A DNA stretch of 8,747 bases from a virus. Lineage: Duplodnaviria > Heunggongvirae > Uroviricota > Caudoviricetes. The translations under genes and the position numbers were made by a program. Location: IMG/VR virus record IMGVR_UViG_2778261069_000010; one strand, written 5' to 3'. This document shows positions 2,582-8,747 of the stretch, piece by piece; position 1 is the first letter of the stretch; every line of letters starts with the position of its first letter. Under the pieces are notes generated by a model. That model worked only from the letters and a program-made list of their open reading frames with translations. It ran no database searches and was not told the DNA's origin.

Positions 2582-2971
2582 TCAGGCAGCTGCACCCGCC
2601 GTTTTCTCGTACTTACTGATAGTGATCTCGACCTTCCCTTCCGGGATAACCGGTCCCCATTCCACCAGCATTCTTTTCACCTGACTGTCGTCTTCCCACA
2701 CCCCCGCGTGGGTCAGGGCGTCAAACAGCGCCTTGTTATAGTTGTCCAGATCGCGGATCCTGTTATCCGGAGGAAACAACACGATCTCCACTGAAGCAGG
2801 TGCCGACGTTGGTTTCGGCAGACGACGTAACTGTTCAACTATTGCTGCGCACGCCGCGCTCTGAAATTTTCGCCCCGCCGCGCTTATCAGGCTCTTACCT
2901 GCAAACGCCCCTTTGTTGGGGTGTCGCCAGTACGTGTTCACGCTGGGCGGAAAAGGCAGGATAAGCTTCAT
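2582..2971 (-). CDS. rusA: Crossover junction endodeoxyribonuclease RusA (Holliday junction resolvase)
   Basis: Product carries LPFPPSVNTYWRH ... RDLDNYNKALFDALTHAGVWEDDSQV, aligning with the catalytic DLDN region of E. coli RusA. ATGA overlap with the upstream gene. Confidence 0.85.
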   Translation of the reverse strand: MKLILPFPPSVNTYWRHPNKGAFAGKSLISAAGRKFQSAACAAIVEQLRRLPKPTSAPASVEIVLFPPDNRIRDLDNYNKALFDALTHAGVWEDDSQVKRMLVEWGPVIPEGKVEITISKYEKTAGAAA

Positions 2972-3294
2972 ACTTTCAAGCCCCTCTCATGTAACCAGTG
3001 AGTTGCACGCAGCCTGGCGTTTTCCTCACCGGCAAGCAGTGCGCGGATAATCCCGACCGTCTCGCTGTCGTCGTCCTTCACTGCGGTATGAAGCGTTATC
3101 CCCCGGGCCACGCCACGCTTTATTGTGATGACGCCTTTTTTCTCCAGTGCGCGAAGATGCTCCACCGCTGCATTCACCGAACGGTATCCCAGCATGGTTG
3201 CCACCTCCTGATTGGTTGGCGGGAAGCCACGTTCTTTCTGGTAAGAAATCAGCATATCCAGCACCTGCTGCTGGCATTGAGTTAACGTCGTCAT
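2968..3294 (-). CDS. LexA N-terminal DNA-binding domain-like protein (winged helix, no S24 peptidase domain)
   Basis: MTTLTQCQQQVLDMLISYQKERGFPPTNQEVATMLGYRSVNAAVEHLRALEKKGVI aligns by eye with the LexA N-terminus (LTARQQEVFDLI...[35 protein letters not shown]). Start at 3294 shares one A with the upstream stop (TAATG). The track start at 3327 would overlap the upstream gene. Confidence 0.6.
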   Translation of the reverse strand: MTTLTQCQQQVLDMLISYQKERGFPPTNQEVATMLGYRSVNAAVEHLRALEKKGVITIKRGVARGITLHTAVKDDDSETVGIIRALLAGEENARLRATHWLHERGLKV

Positions 3295-3773
3295 TAAGCC
3301 CCCACGTAATTGCCTGGCAGATACCACTCTTCACCCGATGCCACGCACCTTTTACTTTTGCGTACACACCGCTCACGGCGCGCCAGAAAATTGTTTCGTT
3401 CTGACTGGGAGTGGCTTTCACGGAATGCCTCCATCCACACCGTTGCAGCACGACGAAATAAACCTCTTGACTCCAGATCTTCTGCCTGCTGAATCAGGCG
3501 CAAAATCACCCGCTGATCATTAGTGCCGACGTAGCTTTTACTGGCCACACTCATATGCTTCAGCACCGGCTCAGGTGGCAACACAGCCTTGCGAGAAAAA
3601 TGCCGGTGTGTTTTGCCTTCACTGCGATAAGCGACACGTCTGCACTGGCGTAACTTACTGGTCGTATTCAGTACACGGGGACGTGGAAAGTATGCAAACG
3701 CGTTCGCAATATCACCGGTCGTACATCCAGGATTGCTTTCAATGAATTTTTGAATCTCACTCATCAGGCTCAT
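3294..3773 (-). CDS. Hypothetical regulator with C-terminal PerC-like motif (LESRGLFRRAATVWMEAF)
   Basis: ATG at 3773 is preceded by AGGGGGTG and lies 2 nt after the upstream stop. The C-terminal segment resembles the G-L-W-R-R-A-A..W motif of the PerC/Pch family, recalled from memory and not searched. It occupies the slot where a P/DnaC-type helicase loader usually sits. Confidence 0.5.
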   Translation of the reverse strand: MSLMSEIQKFIESNPGCTTGDIANAFAYFPRPRVLNTTSKLRQCRRVAYRSEGKTHRHFSRKAVLPPEPVLKHMSVASKSYVGTNDQRVILRLIQQAEDLESRGLFRRAATVWMEAFRESHSQSERNNFLARRERCVRKSKRCVASGEEWYLPGNYVGA

Positions 3774-3775
3774 GA

Positions 3776-4582
3776 TCACCCCCTGAATCCTGCCGGGATC
3801 TGGCTGTAGTCCACATTGTTGTAACTGGCTTTGAAGTACGGGTCTTCGCATCTGGCCGCCGATACCGCAGGAACTTCCCAGGATTCTTCGAAATGACGAT
3901 CCGGACCAAAGAACGTGACAGCCTGTTTCACAAATTGTGTGCCGCTGTTACCCATCGCAGATACCCAGCCCGCGTAGCGTTTCACACCTTCCAGCATGGT
4001 TTCGGGGTTTACCCCCTCGTTCAAACGGGCTTTCCAGGCTTTGAAGGCCGCTGATTTTGAATTGCCACCAGCACGTTTGGGATATGCCAGCCATGCCTGC
4101 TCAAACTCCGGAGAGTATTCCGGTCGGTTTGAACGAACTCGCACAGACTCATCAGCAGATGCACCAACAGCTATTGGTTCATTGACTGGTTCAAAAGAGT
4201 GACTGGTTCTGGGTGAATCTCCTGCACTACCCCCTGGTGCAACTCCTGCACTACCTGGTGAATTTGCTGCACCAGATAGTGAATTATTTGCACTACCCCC
4301 TAGTGAATCTCCTGCACCATCAAGATGAAGAAGATAGATATTACTTGAGTTACCTTTTTCACCTTTCCTGGTGACTTTTTTTACCAGCCCGGACTCACAG
4401 AGGGCCGCAATATGATTCATCACAGAACGTTTGCTAATCTCGCACTGATCAGCGATATGCTGATAGCTGGGCCAGCACTCGCCCTGATCGCTGGCATTAT
4501 CAGCCAGCTTAATCAGAACCAGTTTTCGCAATGGATTTCCCACTCGAATTTTCATCGCTTTAACCATCAGCTCCATACTCAT
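3776..4582 (-). CDS. Replication initiator, lambda O-like: N-terminal HTH (replisome-organizer type), Gly/Ser-rich linker encoded by the iterons, distinct C-terminal domain
   Basis: N-terminus LRKLVLIKLADNASDQGECWPSYQHIADQCEISKRSVMNHIAALCESGLVKKV resembles the lambda O N-terminal DNA-binding region. The linker GGSANNSLSGAANSPGSAGVAPGGSAGDSP is encoded by the direct repeats at 4213-4325. ATGA overlap with the upstream gene. Confidence 0.7.
   Translation of the reverse strand: MSMELMVKAMKIRVGNPLRKLVLIKLADNASDQGECWPSYQHIADQCEISKRSVMNHIAALCESGLVKKVTRKGEKGNSSNIYLLHLDGAGDSLGGSANNSLSGAANSPGSAGVAPGGSAGDSPRTSHSFEPVNEPIAVGASADESVRVRSNRPEYSPEFEQAWLAYPKRAGGNSKSAAFKAWKARLNEGVNPETMLEGVKRYAGWVSAMGNSGTQFVKQAVTFFGPDRHFEESWEVPAVSAARCEDPYFKASYNNVDYSQIPAGFRG
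4213..4385. repeat. Putative origin of replication: five 21-24 bp iterons (core GTGAATCTCCTGCACTACC) followed by an AT-rich stretch, inside the O-like gene
   Basis: Direct repeats start at 4213, 4237, 4258, 4279 and 4303 (gtgaatctcctgcactacc / gtgcaactcctgcactacc / gtgaatttgctgcaccaga / gtgaattatttgcactacc / gtgaatctcctgcaccatc). AT-rich DNA follows at 4326-4385. Same architecture as ori-lambda within O. Confidence 0.55.
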
Positions 4583-4815
4583 GCAGCACCTCCGAGATGC
4601 TTCATGTTTTTTCCGGAGCGAAAGGCTATAAGCGGCATACTGACGCGGTAATTACGGCCCAGCGGTTCACAAATCACTTTCTGACATTCACGGTCAACCA
4701 GGCTAACACGTAGAACATGCCCTGCAGGCGTGGTGTACCACTGCCCAACTGTAGGAATTGATGTTTTTTTACGCTGAAGTAAACGGCGAATATTGAGGCT
4801 CAACGGATTAAGCAT
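4579..4815 (-). CDS. Small hypothetical protein, DUF4222-like
   Basis: 78-codon ORF. ATG at 4815 is preceded by GGAGGG (7-nt spacer) and overlaps the upstream stop by 8 nt. The W-Y...G..L.V.....C........Y pattern resembles small DUF4222 prophage proteins; low certainty. Confidence 0.45.
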   Translation of the reverse strand: MLNPLSLNIRRLLQRKKTSIPTVGQWYTTPAGHVLRVSLVDRECQKVICEPLGRNYRVSMPLIAFRSGKNMKHLGGAA

Positions 4816-5644
4816 GACGATGCCCTCCGCTGATATTCAGGAGACGGTGAATATGAAAATTAGCCTTATCCACCAAACGGATACGTTCAGCCTGCAAGTT
4901 AAGAAGGGTTTCTACCAGAACCTGATGCGCCTGCGGATCCGAAAGAGTTACCTTGCGCAGAGCACGTAGTGCAGTTGTTACATAACTGAGTTTATGTAAG
5001 TCTTCATCATTCAGACGAGTGAGGGCTGGGACAGTAGCCATGATGGCAGCCTCCTTGATCGGTGAAATACTTCCACCACCGGAAACGCCAATTTCGCTGG
5101 TGGTGAACTGAACGGGGTTGGCGTAACCGGTGATCAAGGAAACCGGCGCATCTTTCGATGCCCCCGCCCAGCCCACCATAACTTTGATGTGAGCAAATGC
5201 GGACGATAAAAAAGACGCTGGCGCGTCATATATCGCCTTGATCAATTCCAGGACGCCAATCCCGGCACCCGCTTTATAAGGTGCCTGAACAGTGTAACGT
5301 CCCGGAATGGCAGAATCAATGTGCTGGTGGTCCTTCACACTCAACAAAATCACGCCTGAATTTCCACAAAGGACTAAAGCACTCATGCGGGTAGTCTTTG
5401 CGAAGATAGATAACGCGCTGTGTTTCTGGCTCCCAACGAATAACATGAACATAAAGTCCTCTTCCGTCACGAAACCAGCGGTTAAGTTCCTGCACAACTC
5501 GCCCCCCACAGTCAGGTAAAGTTCTCTGTGGTTACTTACAGCCAGGTGATTTGGTAATCTGCATTCATGCCGTAACAACAGGTGTTCAGCGACGCTGACC
5601 ACCAGCTGTTGCGACAAACGGTTATTTGCCGTTAAACTGTTCAT
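4808..5644 (-). CDS. Hypothetical early-operon protein (278 aa), function unknown
   Basis: Long ORF with ATGA start/stop overlap to the upstream gene and GGAGA upstream. Normal GC content. No Walker A motif; no family recognised by eye. Confidence 0.55.
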   Translation of the reverse strand: MNSLTANNRLSQQLVVSVAEHLLLRHECRLPNHLAVSNHRELYLTVGGELCRNLTAGFVTEEDFMFMLFVGSQKHSALSIFAKTTRMSALVLCGNSGVILLSVKDHQHIDSAIPGRYTVQAPYKAGAGIGVLELIKAIYDAPASFLSSAFAHIKVMVGWAGASKDAPVSLITGYANPVQFTTSEIGVSGGGSISPIKEAAIMATVPALTRLNDEDLHKLSYVTTALRALRKVTLSDPQAHQVLVETLLNLQAERIRLVDKANFHIHRLLNISGGHRHA

Positions 5645-6204
5645 GCGTTAGTTTCTCCACAGACACAAAACGCCACGACGCCCGGAGCTGCACACTCGCG
5701 GGCGTCACTCTTTTCTGGAGCGCAAAAGATTTTGTAGACCAGTGCTGCATGCTCCTGGAGCTTCGAAATTGACAGATACAACTCATCATTAATTGCTGTC
5801 TGCTCGTGTGGCTCCACTACCCCATCTTCGATTGCCGAACGAATCTGCTTTGAGTAACTCCCGATCTGTTCGATGACTTCCAGCAGGCGCTGGTTGATAT
5901 CGGCGTTCTCTACTTCCTCAATTTCAGGAAGCGATACAAACACCCCACCAGCAGACTGTGCGACAGCATCCGCAATGTAGTGAGTGCCAGCCGCGCGCTG
6001 TAAAATCATTGCCCATCCCAGCGGGAAAATCTGATCGCCATCTGCACGAAGGCGGTTGAATAAAGCGTTCTCTGTTACATCCAGCCACTCAGCAGCTTCA
6101 GCGTAACCCCCCGGCAACGCCGCGATAGTTTTTCTGACAGCTTTCACGTACCACTCAGGCTGTTTTTCTACTTTCCAGTGATGCTTACCCACGGTTAGCC
6201 TCAT
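5641..6204 (-). CDS. CII-like / YdaT-family regulator (inferred)
   Basis: Second gene of the rightward operon, directly after a YdaS-type Cro-like gene. Contains an HTH-like segment (GGYAEAAEWLDVTENALFNRLR). Family assignment rests on synteny and loose resemblance, not a verified match. Confidence 0.5.
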   Translation of the reverse strand: MRLTVGKHHWKVEKQPEWYVKAVRKTIAALPGGYAEAAEWLDVTENALFNRLRADGDQIFPLGWAMILQRAAGTHYIADAVAQSAGGVFVSLPEIEEVENADINQRLLEVIEQIGSYSKQIRSAIEDGVVEPHEQTAINDELYLSISKLQEHAALVYKIFCAPEKSDARECAAPGVVAFCVCGETNA

Positions 6205-6235
6205 CGTTCTGTGGTTAAAAATTGAAGGTGTTCTG

Positions 6236-6436
6236 TTAATCTTTCGGATAGATATCCGGTCTTAAGTCAGATTTCGTAATTGCACCTGACGTGCATTGCT
6301 CAAGTTTTTTAGCCAGCACAAAACTGGCTTTTTTATAACCATTGAAAACCAGCCGTAAGTAGCCTGGTGTTGAGCCAACTTTGCCAGCCAACTCGGCCTG
6401 CTGTTCTTTGGTTAAAGAGTCCCAATACGCTTTCAT
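6236..6436 (-). CDS. Cro-like HTH transcriptional regulator (YdaS/Cro family)
   Basis: 66-aa product MKAYWDSLTKEQQAELAGKVGSTPGYLRLVFNGYKKAS...LRPDIYPKD with a typical HTH. ATG at 6436 is preceded by GGAGGT (8-nt spacer). Divergent from the CI-type repressor. The track ORF 6236-6739 is an upstream over-extension. Confidence 0.7.
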   Translation of the reverse strand: MKAYWDSLTKEQQAELAGKVGSTPGYLRLVFNGYKKASFVLAKKLEQCTSGAITKSDLRPDIYPKD

Positions 6437-6526
6437 ACAATATGTACCTCCGGTATACACATTACATGATTGAGATGAACCTTCAAGATACTTGTACCTT
6501 AACGGTACAAGGGTTTTAATTTCGTT
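6437..6526. promoter_or_regulatory. Divergent immunity control region (OR-like): operator repeats plus candidate pRM-like promoter for leaderless cI
   Basis: Perfect 8-bp inverted repeat CTTGTACC-ttaac-GGTACAAG at 6491-6511; ATGTACC at 6442-6448. Candidate -35 TTGTAC (6492-6497), 17-bp spacer, -10 TTTAAT (6515-6520), placing +1 at or near the cI ATG (6527) with no SD. The promoter for the cro-like gene was not confidently located. Confidence 0.5.
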
Positions 6527-7201
6527 ATGAAAACAGTCCATGACATCCGGCGGTCTAACGCCAGAAAACTGAGAGATGGTGTTGGCGGGAATTCTTCCTT
6601 TGCCACCATGATTGATCGCGAGCCAACCCAGACCAGCAGGTTTATGGGAGATGGTGCAACTAAAAATATCGGTGACAGCATGGCACGGCACATCGAAAAA
6701 TGTTTCGACCTGCCTGTCGGATGGCTTGATCAAGAACACCAGACAACGAACATCACAAAAAAACCTGATGTTTCAATCACTAACAAACAAATAACGTTAG
6801 TCCCTGTCATATCATGGGTACAGGCCGGAGCATGGAAAGAAGTTGGCTATTCTGAGGTTGATTTGAGCACAGCAGAAACTTATCCCTGCCCTGTACCCTG
6901 TGGCGAAATGACTTATATCTTGCGGGTGATTGGTGATTCAATGATTGATGAATACCGCCCGGGAGATATGATTTTTGTTGATCCTGAAGTACCTGCCTGC
7001 CACGGTGACGACGTTATTGCATTGATGCACGATACAGGTGAAACCACCTTTAAAAGGTTGATAGAAGACGGAACACAACGTTATCTCAAAGCATTAAACC
7101 CAAACTGGCCAGAGCCTTACATTAAGATCAACGGTAATTGTTCCATAATTGGTACTGTGATTTTCTCAGGAAAACCAAGGAGATACCATATTAAAGCCTA
7201 A
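6527..7201 (+). CDS. cI: CI-type phage repressor (HTH N-domain, S24 LexA-like autopeptidase C-domain), P22 C2 / lambda CI-like
   Basis: C-domain matches by eye: ISWVQAG (Ala-Gly cleavage site), GDSM (catalytic Ser), DMIFVDPE, TTFKRL (catalytic Lys), LNPNWP, NGNCSIIGTVI. These parallel P22 C2 (ISWVSAGQW, GDSM, ILVDPE, TFKKL, LNPQYP, NGNCKIIGVV). Confidence 0.9.
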   Translation: MKTVHDIRRSNARKLRDGVGGNSSFATMIDREPTQTSRFMGDGATKNIGDSMARHIEKCFDLPVGWLDQEHQTTNITKKPDVSITNKQITLVPVISWVQAGAWKEVGYSEVDLSTAETYPCPVPCGEMTYILRVIGDSMIDEYRPGDMIFVDPEVPACHGDDVIALMHDTGETTFKRLIEDGTQRYLKALNPNWPEPYIKINGNCSIIGTVIFSGKPRRYHIKA

Positions 7202-7213
7202 TCAATATTTATG

Positions 7214-7236
7214 AACCTGCTTCGGCAGGTTTTTTT
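7214..7236 (+). terminator. Rho-independent terminator downstream of cI
   Basis: Stem AACCTGC / GCAGGTT with a TTCG tetraloop, followed by a T-run (7230-7236), 13 nt after the cI stop. Confidence 0.7.
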
Positions 7237-7240
7237 ATAC

Positions 7241-7268
7241 TTGACAATGTACCCTTGAGATACATAAT
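7241..7268 (+). promoter_or_regulatory. pL-like sigma70 promoter with overlapping operator repeats (OL-like)
   Basis: -35 TTGACA (7241-7246), 16-bp spacer, -10 CATAAT (7263-7268). Two copies of AATGTACCC (7246-7254 and 7265-7273, 19-bp period) overlap the spacer and -10, as expected for repressor operators. Confidence 0.55.
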
Positions 7269-7376
7269 GTACCCAGATGAAACAGCGAACAGGCAGGATG
7301 CCCACGAAGTAGCCGCCCGGGGCATATGAAGACCGGGATGATTCGTTAGCAACAAAAAAGCGCCGTACCGGACACT

Positions 7377-7389
7377 TCGCTCTTTAACA
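7377..7389 (+). promoter_or_regulatory. boxA-like antitermination element (rrn/nut type) in the pL leader
   Basis: CGCTCTTTAACAA closely matches the rrn boxA consensus GCTCTTTAACAA and lambda nut boxA CGCTCTTA. It lies about 100 nt downstream of the predicted pL start. No clear boxB hairpin was identified by eye. Confidence 0.45.
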
Positions 7390-7435
7390 ATCTGATCCCC
7401 ATCAACAAGTAATTGATAACTTGAGGAAGTGTGAA

Positions 7436-7678
7436 ATGCACAAAACAGAACCAAAAATCGTCGCGCCAGGCTACACAGATGAGGAAATTTACGAGTGGAT
7501 GACAAAGAAGCTGGCTGCTATAAACCAGCTTCGTGAAGTGCAGTCTTATCGTCAGGAAACAATAGACTCCTTAAAAAAAACTAGATCAGGAGATCACATC
7601 TTTATCGCAAGAATCTACTCTAGATATTGTTCATACAAATTAGGATCCCATTCTTTTTCGTCAAAGTTATCAAAGTGA
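7436..7678 (+). CDS. Small hypothetical ORF, first ORF of the pL transcript; 3' part runs into the AT-rich island and may be truncated or fused
   Basis: ATG at 7436 is preceded by GAGGAAG (6-nt spacer). The first ~45 codons are in normal-GC DNA; the remainder lies in AT-rich DNA and overlaps the 3' end of the convergent gene 7615-8049. Not arginine-rich, so not N-like. Confidence 0.3.
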   Translation: MHKTEPKIVAPGYTDEEIYEWMTKKLAAINQLREVQSYRQETIDSLKKTRSGDHIFIARIYSRYCSYKLGSHSFSSKLSK

Positions 7679-8049
7679 TAAATTTGAGATCTCCAGTCTA
7701 AATTATCTAAAAAATCCTTAGCTCTTTTACTCATTTTATCAAACGTCAATTCATCCTGAATAGAAAGAATAAGATCATCAAACTCCATTTCATTAATTTT
7801 TTTTGGTGTCCAATGATGTTTCATAAGAATAAGGTGAATCAACGCATTTTTCCCTTTCAATTGATTATAGGGTGTGCTGAATTTCTTTCTATGCTCATAT
7901 AGTACAAGATCAAGCAAAGTCAGGAATGCGGCTCTTGATTCAACCTTAACTTTATCGATTGTTTGAACTATTCCACTAGTATTAATACCACGACACTTTC
8001 CAACATTTTCACAGTGGGATGCATACAGGTCACGTATATAAACAGACAT
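7615..8049 (-). CDS. Hypothetical protein (144 aa) in an AT-rich island, antisense to the pL operon; candidate accessory/exclusion gene
   Basis: ATG at 8049 is preceded by AAGGAAAAG. Composition is sharply AT-rich from about 7566 to 8050. No family recognised. The frame remains open upstream to 8313 in GC-rich DNA, but the RBS and composition favour the 8049 start. Confidence 0.55.
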   Translation of the reverse strand: MSVYIRDLYASHCENVGKCRGINTSGIVQTIDKVKVESRAAFLTLLDLVLYEHRKKFSTPYNQLKGKNALIHLILMKHHWTPKKINEMEFDDLILSIQDELTFDKMSKRAKDFLDNLDWRSQIYHFDNFDEKEWDPNLYEQYLE

Positions 8050-8065
8050 TCTCTTTTCCTTTTGC

Positions 8066-8112
8066 GTTGTTGGGGATACCCAGATTAACCGAATCCTTGT
8101 TGTTGGGGAATA
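8066..8112. repeat. Two direct repeats GTTGTTGGGGA (8066-8076, 8102-8112), 36-bp period, immediately upstream of the start of the 7615-8049 gene
   Basis: Exact 11-bp repeat with similar flanks (gttgttggggataccc / gttgttggggaataacc). Function unknown. Confidence 0.4.
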
Positions 8113-8335
8113 ACCAGGTCCACCTCGCCTGATGTGGCTAAAAGCAGGCACATAACAGCTAAGTATTTTCAACCAGAGAGAATCCTTAGCGTTGTGGTGA
8201 ATGCGGCTCAGCGCACGCGGGTTAAGGTTGAGGCTGACAGTCGACCTTCTGTGGATACCCACCCGCCTAGTGTGCAACCTTCGCCAGGCACCGGGAGGCA
8301 CCCGGCACCACAACTTTATGCTGTGTGTAGTCCTG

Positions 8336-8383
8336 GCGGTACCAGCTTGTACCCTTGCTTCCGGCTGGTACCGCTCTTTTTAC
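8336..8383 (+). terminator. Strong stem-loop followed by a U-tract: candidate tL-type intrinsic terminator (or structured RNA element)
   Basis: Perfect 11-bp inverted repeat GCGGTACCAGC (8336-8346) / GCTGGTACCGC (8364-8374) with a 17-nt loop, followed by TCTTTTTAC. The loop contains TTGTACCC, the operator-like motif. Confidence 0.45.
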
Positions 8384-8517
8384 AAAACAGAGAAGAGCAT
8401 CACCGGACGACGGGCTCATAACCCAATCCATCCGGGCGGCTGCCACCACAGGTGTTCTTCTCTGTTTTGTGGAGAAACTAATCGGCCTTGCAGGGCCGAT
8501 ATGATGAGGAGCAGCAA

Positions 8518-8747
8518 AATGGCTAGCGAACGCAGTACTGATGTGCAGGCATTTATCGGGGAGCTGGACGGCGGCGTATTTGAAACCAAAATCGGCGCAG
8601 TTCTCAGTGAAGTCGCTTCAGGTGTGATGAACACGAAAACCAAAGGTAAGGTCTCACTCAACCTGGAAATCGAACCATTTGATGAGAACCGTGTGAAAAT
8701 CAAACACAAACTCTCATATGTTCGCCCGACTAACCGCGGGAAAATTT
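8518..8747 (+). CDS. Hypothetical early-left operon protein, 3'-partial (runs off window end)
   Basis: ATG at 8518 is preceded by GAGGAG (7-nt spacer). The frame is open for 76 codons to the window edge (MASERSTDVQAFIGELDGGVFETKIGAVLSEVASGVMNTKTKGKVSLNLEIEPFDENRVKIKHKLSYVRPTNRGKI). Not in the ORF track because it has no stop in the window. No family recognised. Confidence 0.6.

Follow-up and report, generated by a model that had tools for sequence, protein, structure and literature searches.

A structured leader RNA and boxA in the N-less early-left region of an SfV-type lambdoid prophage

Described antitermination systems and the N-less early-left region

The textbook example of processive antitermination comes from the early genes of lambdoid phages, in which two forms are known: the N protein with its nut sites, and the put RNA of phage HK022. 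In HK022, putL and putR are cis-acting antiterminator RNAs that bind the zinc-binding domain of the RNA polymerase β′ subunit. Complexes of Nus factors with boxA work on Rho and are inefficient against strong intrinsic terminators. N-independent boxA elements shield long non-coding RNAs from Rho (PMC7665894, PMC5725501), and the functional boxA consensus is GYTCTTTAANA (PMC5725501). As for put, putL sits just downstream of pL, and the RNA folds into a pair of adjacent stem-loops arranged as a V (PMC9378689).

Here we analyzed an 8,747-nt stretch of DNA from a Caudoviricetes virus (IMG/VR record IMGVR_UViG_2778261069_000010), referred to below as the window. Our findings identify in it the ordinary early-left control region of an E. 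coli prophage from the SfV / SfIV / e14 group of lambdoid phages, which carry a YmfK-type repressor and have neither N nor boxB. As in lambda, a promoter, a boxA and a later terminator follow one another, at the same position relative to the repressor gene; unlike lambda, the window and all SfV-type relatives lack a boxB, an arginine-rich ORF and a nutR-like boxA in the pR operon. The pL-nutL-N-tL1 layout proposed in an earlier sequence-only reading of this DNA is superficial: the terminator closes a conserved structured RNA at its 3' end and is not a tL1 placed after a gene.

A cI-type repressor gene (YmfK-like, LexA/S24 family; 6527-7201, plus strand; Pfam Peptidase_S24, E = 1.5e-26), annotated as cI or ymfK in relatives, is transcribed in the same direction as pL. 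The intrinsic terminator of the cI transcript was located by a scan at 7213-7240 (plus strand), where an 8-bp stem (7213-7232) is followed by a T run, and its counterpart carries a terminator annotation in phages SfV and Ayreon. The pL promoter with its operator-like repeats occupies 7241-7274 (plus strand). With the architecture TTGACA-16 nt-CATAAT (7241-7268; -35 at 7241-7246, -10 at 7263-7268), it matches 11 of 12 consensus positions and is the top-scoring promoter site within 6200-8747, in agreement with the promoter that the earlier reading had placed at 7241-7268. Two AATGTACCC operator-like repeats (7246-7254 and 7266-7274) overlap pL, and an identical promoter is present in SfV, SfIV, PhiR29_1 and K-12 e14 and is annotated as a promoter in Ayreon. 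The transcript is predicted to start near 7275.

The absence of an N-type gene, already noted from the sequence alone, holds up in a frame scan and in family searches, and is common to the whole phage group. Among start-codon-bearing, stop-to-stop plus-strand frames of 7269-8519, none contains an arginine-rich window like those of lambda, P22 or phi21; the sole frame with 5 arginines in 22 residues (8201-8518) falls inside the conserved structured RNA. The search for an N-like ORF that had been suggested was run in the window and in relatives: Pfam and PHROGs revealed no N family among the unknown ORFs of the former or in the latter, and no N-like protein among the first ORFs past the leader RNA in other phages. 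The order cI, pL, leader, variable insert, STnc100-like terminator and yfdP recurs without an N-type gene in SfIV, SfV, PhiR29_1, PhiR49_1 and vB_EcoS-569R4 and in 343 E. coli genomes (coverage at least 80%). The paper on the "Nus-dependent" phage mEpimmI was considered and set aside as inapplicable, since that phage belongs to another group and has an N-like protein, Gp17.

The leader: junction RNA and boxA

The leader contains a three-way-junction RNA of about 65 nt (the junction RNA; 7284-7347, plus strand), which our covariance model R1 scores at 93.4 bits (7280-7352). Its helix P1 pairs 7284-7289 with 7342-7347 and begins some 6-9 nt past the predicted start of the transcript; P2 is a hairpin at 7292-7302, and P3 pairs 7316-7320 with 7333-7337, enclosing a conserved 12-nt loop. 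The conserved junction strands include CACGAAGUAGCC and GAUGA. Across 50 sequences, 94.6% of cells are paired, versus 73% in shuffles and 22-43% in slid controls, and changes on both sides were observed in 5 of 6 P1 pairs and 3 of 5 P3 pairs; RNAalifold recovers the same P1, P2 and P3 helices. Only comparative analysis exposed this RNA; the minimum free energy structure of the single sequence misses its helices. Folding the 7275-7435 leader, a check suggested from the sequence alone, thus gives a null result as a single-sequence fold (z = 0.36, no better than shuffles), but the conserved structured RNA emerges by comparison.

No Rfam family was detected at the leader when we searched the whole window, 7255-7400 alone (E up to 10) and eight related loci. 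Full-text searches for the core of the junction RNA, in both DNA and RNA spelling, returned unrelated primer matches only, and a literature keyword search on cis-acting antiterminator RNAs returned nothing relevant; the RNA is apparently undescribed in the literature. A hammerhead-like reading of its GAUGA and CGAA strands was rejected on inspection, as neither the order nor the identity of the core nucleotides fits.

The junction RNA shares several properties with put: both are structured RNAs of about 65-75 nt right after pL in phages without N, both are near-unchanged in sequence across otherwise differing phages of several genera, and put, too, can be present on the left side alone (HK639, CobraSix). 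A further similarity, read by eye and serving as a lead only, is that of the P2 loop CAGGA(N)G to the apical loop of put stem II. There is, however, no homology of sequence or structure. A model built from 9 put sequences (R2), which recovers HK022 putL and putR, HK639 and CobraSix at 72-96 bits, found no match in the window (E up to 10, filters off) and nothing in the other junction RNA loci (filters off), while R1 found nothing in put phages. These reciprocal covariance-model searches rule out homology, and put-bearing phages lack the junction RNA and vice versa. The junction RNA further differs from put in being a closed three-way junction with a covarying P1, in having no pR-side copy and in coexisting with N-type sites in Xenorhabdus. 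Of the put-like RNA that the sequence-only reading had envisaged, a covariation-supported RNA at the putL-equivalent position stands, and the relationship to put itself does not.

The junction RNA, with compensatory base-pair changes, is conserved in temperate phages and in prophages throughout Enterobacterales, and also in E. coli K-12 e14 and in T5-like phages of Providencia. Of 5426 complete E. coli genomes, 1856 contain it, in every case without annotation, and searches of species genomes across Enterobacterales gave 74 strong matches. Of 40 promoter contexts that score 9/12 or better, 29 have P1 beginning 12-15 nt past the -10 hexamer, and the contexts represent many unrelated promoter and operator types. 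The sequences and genes joined to it downstream are also many and unrelated, which makes a local alternative-pairing switch unlikely and fits a processive or autonomous role better. Often it lies 25-40 nt 5' of the first gene with a terminator-free gap, as in K-12 e14, where it sits on the minus strand at 1202107-1202180 of NC_000913 between ymfK and ymfJ, with ymfJ directly after. Strong sense-strand terminator-like hairpins were counted within 1.5 kb downstream at 41 of 89 distinct loci versus 18 of 89 in the control region; the heuristic is lenient, and on the antisense strand it scores higher still, so this enrichment lends weak support.

Xenorhabdus prophages have, past the junction RNA, a boxA, a boxB-like hairpin and an ORF whose product is arginine-rich at its N-terminus, and a matching boxA and hairpin are present on the pR side. 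Such coexistence with N-type systems indicates that the junction RNA is not simply an N substitute. The Ayreon, cdtI and Stx2c phages share the repressor, pL and terminator of this region and lack both the junction RNA and boxA, so neither element is obligatory for passing that terminator. No pR-side twin of the leader was found in the window, either as inverted repeats between the operons or with model R1, although the pR operon carries terminated small RNAs (C4, isrK). The only identity between the two operons is a 14-nt RBS-like one (5648-5661 and 8468-8481).

An rrn-type boxA (CGCUCUUUAACAA) without boxB lies at 7378-7390 (plus strand). The exact match to CGCTCTTTAACAA at this position is the sole zero-mismatch copy in the window, and GCTCTTTAACA within 7379-7389 matches GYTCTTTAANA perfectly; the boxA reported earlier at 7377-7389 is therefore real and of rrn type, with coordinates one base off. 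Three further boxA-like matches in the window have 3 mismatches each, which is chance level, and none has fewer than 3, hence the pR operon has no nutR-like boxA. No stable hairpin that would qualify as boxB adjoins the element, as had been remarked before: the 50 nt 3' of boxA fold at -5.1 kcal/mol only, and the hairpin on its 5' side is a reverse-strand terminator. The latter, an intrinsic terminator for leftward moron transcription (7357-7378, minus strand), was recognized by the scan as a hairpin followed by TTTTGTTGC, and its PhiR29_1 counterpart, read directly from the sequence, has 8 bp and TTTTTGTTGC.

A perfect boxA is located 4-47 nt 3' of the junction RNA on the same strand at 26 of 106 viral and 16 of 70 genome loci. 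The linkers between the two are unrelated among loci, and the first base of boxA is C, A or T. Over roughly 1 Mb of related loci, almost every perfect match to GYTCTTTAANA sits at this distance past a junction RNA, on the same strand. In the T5-like phage PR1, boxA follows each of three early promoters. Some three quarters of junction RNAs lack a consensus boxA in their vicinity, and part of the association may just reflect that both are pL-leader elements. Even so, an rrn-like boxA operating without N is the best-supported element of what the sequence-only reading had put forward, given its perfect consensus and a position that is kept in relatives and in unrelated phages though the flanks diverge.

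From boxA to yfdP

The only sizeable plus-strand ORF past boxA is a small acidic one of the phrog_1744 family (7436-7640, called to 7678), which is non-basic and has no arginine-rich motif, as described previously. In relatives its product has 68 aa; here an extra A in the run 7573-7580 (8 A) shifts the frame, which is why the called ORF runs on to 7678. The corrected translation aligns to positions 1-67 of 68 in phrog_1744 (E = 1.2e-33).

A low-GC moron gene of the ECs1072 family (7615-8049, minus strand; phrog_5286, E = 5.8e-67), whose name comes from RefSeq, strain C4, is crossed antisense by the pL transcript; in other relatives the slot contains different morons or none. That this reverse-strand gene fills most of the interval, and that the terminator is part of an STnc100-like RNA, had been missed earlier. 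The untranslated stretch of the pL transcript at 7595-7794 (plus strand) is C-rich and G-poor, with C minus G of +4 to +12 and G of at most 0.11 in 80-nt windows, a composition that marks it as a candidate rut-like Rho loading zone.

STnc100-family RNAs are described as sRNAs encoded by prophages and related to PasD (bioRxiv 10.64898/2026.05.13.724894), and canonical STnc100 copies are reported to lie downstream of stx2 in the late region (PMC12370729). The STnc100-like structured RNA of the window (8161-8383, plus strand; Rfam RF02076, 46.2 bits, E = 1.1e-7) resembles them in aligning to the full 206-position model, in ending with the terminal terminator hairpin of the family and in its prophage location. 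It differs in scoring just under the curated threshold, both here (gathering score 47) and in relatives (42.4 and 39.5 bits), and in lying in a pL leader instead of the late region. The fold of 8100-8530 has a z of -4.98.

This RNA ends in a strong intrinsic terminator (8335-8381, plus strand), predicted as a 13-bp stem (8335-8347 with 8363-8375) followed by UCUUUUU, with a hairpin energy of -23.7 kcal/mol (RNAfold). The arms and loop carry operator-like GTACC motifs, the hairpin is kept in SfV, PhiR29_1 and Ayreon, and the consensus scan missed it because its loop exceeds 8 nt. The hairpin and U-tract reported earlier at 8336-8383 are thus confirmed as a predicted strong terminator, with a span of 8335-8381, and its tL1 role is superficial. 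Between the terminator and yfdP lies a long near-perfect hairpin (8382-8470, plus strand; inverted repeat of 18 nt, 94% complementary) of about 25 bp in the minimum free energy fold, kept in relatives, which is a possible RNase III-type processing site. The start of yfdP (8519-8747, plus strand; RefSeq; phrog_204, phrog_33467) opens the remaining left operon, which in SfIV and SfV comprises yfdP, yfdQ, an HD hydrolase gene and further genes up to xis and int.

Proposed mechanism, alternatives and significance

The best explanation of these observations as a whole, to which we assign a probability of about 0.4, is early-left control by the junction RNA together with a boxA-Nus complex, without N. 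The pL transcript would begin with the junction RNA, a portable module at the 5' end of early transcripts. This module may bind some conserved part of the host machinery, RNA polymerase being the most plausible candidate, and act processively in cis like HK022 put, carrying the enzyme past downstream pauses and terminators. By analogy with rrn, suhB and CRISPR arrays, we infer that boxA would load host NusB/NusE/NusA/NusG/SuhB without a phage protein, and that the Nus-loaded polymerase would resist Rho over about 1.1 kb of mostly untranslated RNA comprising the small ORF, the moron antisense and the STnc100-like RNA. The terminator at 8335-8381 would then gate entry to yfdP through xis-int. 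This boxA resembles the N-independent boxA sites of rrn leaders, suhB and CRISPR in its perfect consensus, in the absence of a boxB and of a phage protein and in its place towards the 5' end of a long transcript that is largely untranslated; it differs in belonging to the early-left operon of a temperate phage, where Nus loading is putative, with a conserved structured RNA ahead, and the mechanism is not expected to beat the intrinsic terminator. The broader proposal, that the junction RNA represents a new class of polymerase-modifying cis RNA, a put analogue unrelated to put that opens the first transcripts of temperate and T5-like phages of Enterobacterales, alone or with boxA-Nus, is tentative and open to considerable doubt.

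Several alternatives deserve consideration. The junction RNA could be a processing or stability element unrelated to termination (a self-cleaving ribozyme, an RNase substrate or the site of a stabilising protein), in which case the left operon would rely on boxA-mediated Rho resistance and leaky terminator read-through under strong pL firing. Such a compact three-way junction, with junction and loop nucleotides that hardly vary, is a typical feature of small ribozymes and protein-binding RNAs, and this view also accommodates the junction RNAs placed 25-40 nt before a first gene, their coexistence with N-type systems and the relatives that have the same terminator without them. It is nevertheless unlikely in our assessment, considering that P1 lies 6-9 nt from the predicted 5' end behind a single-stranded tail, unlike a simple 5' stabiliser hairpin, that no Rfam ribozyme family matches, and that pairing with boxA and with promoter-proximal terminators recurs. 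Alternatively, the pL transcript may be meant to end at 8381, its main product being a non-coding RNA, possibly processed to a ~220-nt Hfq-type sRNA from the STnc100-like domain, with no dedicated antitermination; the terminator would insulate yfdP-xis-int, expressed by low read-through or other signals. The description of STnc100-family RNAs as prophage sRNAs (bioRxiv 10.64898/2026.05.13.724894) agrees with this idea, as do the strength of the terminator, the long hairpin just past it, a possible site of processing or retroregulation, and the loci L118, L096 and L014, where a strong terminator 56-270 nt past the junction RNA would yield a discrete small RNA. We consider it quite unlikely: no plus-strand promoter-like site was found in 8383-8519, in SfIV and SfV the xis and int genes, which must be expressed on induction, follow downstream in the same orientation, and a boxA would serve no purpose without downstream RNA to protect.

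Two further readings appear weaker. As in suhB, boxA could act as a translational repressor, the Nus complex hiding the ribosome-binding site of the small ORF and Rho termination following. The small ORF indeed starts 46 nt past boxA (7436), within the 50 nt from a start codon used as the criterion for suhB-like targets (PMC5725501), and two boxA elements of PR1 lie 48-51 nt before start codons; the same hairpin-boxA module, however, precedes reverse morons with no plus-strand ORF after it in PhiR29_1 and other loci, and Xenorhabdus has a classical nutL-like site at the same position, which leaves this role improbable. Finally, the sequence-only reading had offered loss of N on island insertion, leaving a prophage crippled for early-left expression. 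The frameshifted small ORF and a moron sitting where lambda has N could be taken that way, yet the N-less arrangement is carried by isolated, propagating phages (SfV, SfIV, PhiR29_1, vB_EcoS-569R4 and Kati), N was detected in no relative examined, and at the moron-free locus L096 the leader RNA directly adjoins the STnc100-like block, with no space for N. Because plaque-forming relatives (SfV, SfIV, PhiR29_1) share the layout, this is not a crippled prophage, and N loss is very hard to credit.

These findings concern a large and very common group of phages that have neither N with nut sites nor put, including the SfV-like serotype-converting Shigella phages, K-12 e14, ST64B and many prophages of pathogenic E. 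coli, which carry in that slot a boxA that is perfect and N-independent, together with a conserved structured RNA. About one in three complete E. coli genomes carries the junction RNA, and its occurrence in K-12 e14 makes this RNA directly testable with standard genetics. Should it prove to be a ribozyme or a protein-binding element, it would still be a new and widespread phage RNA motif. If RNA polymerase is the target, the junction RNA would be just the second such phage RNA to be known, and would account for the expression of recombination, excision and integration genes in phages without N.

A left operon without N

The window represents the early regulatory region of an E. coli lambdoid prophage of the SfV / SfIV / e14 type. 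Over 7200-8747, it shares 99.5% identity with strains C4 and TUM1886 and 91% with Shigella phage SfIV. The genes for the Q antiterminator (PF06530), DUF968, KilA/Ant, RusA, a replication protein, a CII-like protein and Cro lie on the minus strand, while a LexA/S24-type repressor (6527-7201) lies on the plus strand. As the sequence-only reading had oriented them, pL and the repressor point in the same direction, as in lambda. The promoter (7241-7268) directly follows the cI terminator and agrees with 11 of 12 consensus positions. The predicted boxA is present as an exact CGCTCTTTAACAA, one base away from its original placement, at 7378-7390; it is the sole good copy in the window and agrees with the functional consensus GYTCTTTAANA (PMC5725501).

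The proposed lack of an N-type gene was borne out, as none of the start-codon-containing frames from boxA to the terminator has an arginine-rich window like those of lambda, P22 or phi21 N, and no stable fold adjoins boxA as a boxB would. The small ORF noticed in this interval encodes a conserved protein, phrog_1744 (E = 1.2e-33), which in the window carries a +1 frameshift within a run of eight A (7573-7580) that is either genuine or a homopolymer sequencing error. In relatives, this protein has 68 aa and a C-terminus of the form ...LDQEIT.LSQ..TLDIV.TN.

The suggestion that N was lost and the prophage crippled is contradicted by isolated phages. SfV, SfIV, PhiR29_1, PhiR49_1, vB_EcoS-569R4 and Kati all lack an N-type gene and share the order repressor, pL, leader, variable slot, STnc100-like terminator, yfdP ... 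xis, int. The absence of N is a property of the whole phage group, for which this layout is ordinary. In the window, the slot is mostly occupied by a low-GC moron of the ECs1072 family (phrog_5286; 7615-8049, minus strand), whose own terminator (7378-7357, minus strand) lies just upstream of boxA on the opposite strand. In relatives, this position is empty or holds a forward ORF (SfV orf33) or other inserts in reverse orientation, and it therefore represents a moron insertion site; at L096, one of the compared loci, the STnc100-like block is joined directly to the leader.

The tL-like terminator is real, with a 13-bp stem (8335-8347 with 8363-8375; -23.7 kcal/mol) followed by UCUUUUU. It corresponds to the terminal stem of the Rfam family STnc100, which 8161-8383 matches along its entire length at 46.2 bits (threshold 47; E = 1.1e-7; 42.4 and 39.5 bits in relatives), and this STnc100-like RNA with its strong terminator precedes yfdP-xis-int. 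The region 8100-8530 is unusually structured overall (z = -4.98). A near-perfect hairpin of ~25 bp (8382-8470), kept in SfV, PhiR29_1 and Ayreon, starts in the terminator U tract, ends 48 nt 5' of yfdP and resembles an RNase III-type substrate or a site of retroregulation.

Several further features of the two early operons were observed. The terminator hairpin DNA (8335-8375) contains three GTACC motifs, one of them as TTGTACCCTTG in the loop, which match the operator-like repeats AATGTACCCTTG at pL (7246-7274) and the palindrome CTTGTACC..GGTACAAG near pR (6491-6511); the terminator might be a further binding site of the repressor, as a distal operator or looping site. A 14-nt RNA segment, UGUGGAGAAACUAA, is common to the pR (5648-5661, minus strand) and pL (8468-8481, plus strand) transcripts, in both cases just 5' of the start codon region (~0.07 such matches expected by chance), and may function in both as a ribosome-binding or regulatory sequence. 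The pR operon, in which no antitermination signal is visible, also hosts two terminated small RNAs, a C4 antisense RNA (5096-5183, minus strand, 82.3 bits) and an isrK-like RNA (5208-5284, minus strand, 64.2 bits). Both lie within a 278-aa ORF (4808-5644) labeled "immunity region" in relatives and matching Pfam Phage_ASH; this protein call and its match may partly represent translated RNA genes.

A conserved three-way-junction leader RNA

Besides lacking N and carrying a consensus boxA, the group has a conserved leader RNA. The first ~75 nt of the leader are 82-97% identical among phages with unrelated promoters, repressors and downstream genes, including Citrobacter phiNP, Yersinia YeP1, Klebsiella phages, Pantoea AH07, Pectobacterium ZF40, Salmonella ST64B and SPN3UB, SfII, mEp237 and mEp460. 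Further copies were collected by a 15-mer scan of IMG/VR (80 distinct) and a 21-mer scan of species genomes (~70 distinct); conservation of the 15-mer is partly an ascertainment effect, and matches from pattern-free BLAST have the same core.

A single ungapped architecture fits all copies. In the window (plus strand) it comprises helix P1 (7284-7289 with 7342-7347), hairpin P2 (7292-7302) and helix P3 (7316-7320 with 7333-7337) around a conserved 12-nt loop, with near-invariant junction strands CACGAAGUAGCC and GAUGA. Paired cells amount to 94.6% in 50 distinct sequences, compared with 73% in column shuffles and 22-43% with slid partners. Two-sided changes affect five of six P1 pairs and three of five P3 pairs (for example, GCGAA/UUCGC to CCACC/GGUGG or GUCAUC/GAUGAC), mEp237 and ZF40 add covariation at two P3 pairs held fixed in the search pattern, and RNAalifold recovered the same helices.

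A covariance model of this RNA finds one copy per locus (7280-7352 in the window, 93.4 bits) and 74 strong matches in genomes, among them Escherichia, Shigella, Enterobacter, Kosakonia, Citrobacter, Kluyvera, Yersinia, Serratia, Erwinia, Pantoea, Pectobacterium, Xenorhabdus and Photorhabdus. Full-scoring copies (83-88 bits) in two assemblies labeled as non-Enterobacterales, Chryseobacterium sp. 18061 (L153) and Pseudomonas lundensis I31 (L159), may reflect contamination or mislabeled contigs and not genuine host range. P1 starts 12-15 nt 3' of the -10 hexamer, and thus ~6-9 nt into the transcript, in 29 of 40 promoter contexts scoring at least 9/12, which include many unrelated promoter and operator types.

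The evolutionary pattern of put is similar, as put also lies just after pL and keeps 80-100% identity over Escherichia, Salmonella, Erwinia, Enterobacter and Pantoea phages. However, homology of the junction RNA to put was rejected by reciprocal covariance-model searches: a model of nine put sequences recovered put in HK022, HK639 and CobraSix (72-96 bits) and, with filters off, matched neither the window nor other junction-RNA loci, and the junction-RNA model had no match in put phages. Whereas put consists of two side-by-side stems, the present RNA is a closed junction. HK639 and CobraSix do offer a precedent for an antiterminator RNA on the left side only.

In many phages, a second conserved leader motif, (A)ACGUUC(C/U)G...GCCGG...GGCGA(U/G)AAGG, lies 20-60 nt 3' of the junction RNA, or directly 5' of it in a few (L042, L039, mEp237 as L128, ZF40 as L129, L035, L018 and others); it is absent from the window.

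Possible roles of boxA and the junction RNA

Across ~1 Mb of junction-RNA-carrying loci, perfect GYTCTTTAANA matches (~4 expected by chance overall) are nearly confined to the same strand, 4-47 nt 3' of P1, at 26 of 106 viral and 16 of 70 genomic loci, and the intervening linkers are unrelated in sequence. boxA elements that work without N are known to recruit the Nus complex and shield long non-coding transcripts from Rho (PMC7665894; PMC5725501). Because the window boxA precedes ~1.1 kb of mostly untranslated sequence, with a C-rich, G-poor stretch at 7595-7794, we infer fairly confidently that it would recruit host Nus factors and keep Rho off the leader, as in rrn or CRISPR transcripts. 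In a rival reading, boxA would repress translation of the small ORF, as at suhB.

For the junction RNA, we propose with modest confidence an autonomous, portable module that would bind conserved host machinery, probably RNA polymerase, and act processively, since one and the same RNA occurs behind many unrelated promoters and ahead of many unrelated sequences, with terminators at differing distances. The unrelated flanks and variable distances also make a local alternative-pairing switch unlikely. Strong sense-strand terminators lie downstream at 41 of 89 loci versus 18 of 89 for a control region, by a crude heuristic under which the antisense strand scores higher.

An antitermination role is further limited by several observations. 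A gene starts within 25-40 nt 3' of the junction RNA, with no intervening terminator, in e14 and at many further loci. In Xenorhabdus prophages, boxA, a boxB-like hairpin and an ORF starting MTKVTVIRSDYAARRYERRAAFLAKK come after the RNA, with a matching boxA and hairpin on the pR side, and the RNA thus coexists with an apparent classical N/nut system. The repressor, pL and terminator of the window are shared by Ayreon, cdtI and Stx2c phages, which have no boxA and have lost all but the first ~20 nt of the junction RNA. The RNA could alternatively be a ribozyme or a processing or stability element, or the pL transcript could be designed to stop at 8381 as a non-coding RNA. The N-less layout described from sequence is confirmed, and its interpretation is supported in part.

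These phages show additional arrangements. The Xenorhabdus nutL/nutR-like pairs (L180, L194, L179, L183) have loops GGCAYUCU or GAAAA, and the ~103-aa ORF 3' of nutL, with an arginine-rich N-terminus and no PHROG family, is probably an unannotated N family. The Ayreon-type leader (Ayreon, L002, 5069-5530; cdtI; Stx2c) is another structured RNA of ~470 nt, whose long-range GUUGUGGU...ACCACAAC helix resembles the STnc100-like block.

In the T5-like Providencia phages PR1 (L130) and PSTCR5 (L058), the junction RNA stands at the front of the pre-early A1/A2 operon within the terminal repeat. PR1 carries three pre-early promoters in a row (2940-3930), with a consensus boxA after each one. Two of the three boxA copies are identical to the 13-mer of the window, and the first promoter also has the junction RNA. 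This arrangement suggests that T5-like phages employ N-independent Nus-factor antitermination for pre-early genes.

Of 5426 complete E. coli genomes, 1856 contain the motif, and it is annotated in none of them. No Rfam family matches it, and its core sequence was not found in a full-text literature search. The K-12 copy in e14 lies between ymfK and ymfJ (NC_000913 1202107-1202180, minus strand, 73.6 bits). This conserved leader RNA appears undescribed, and it is readily testable, including in E. coli K-12.
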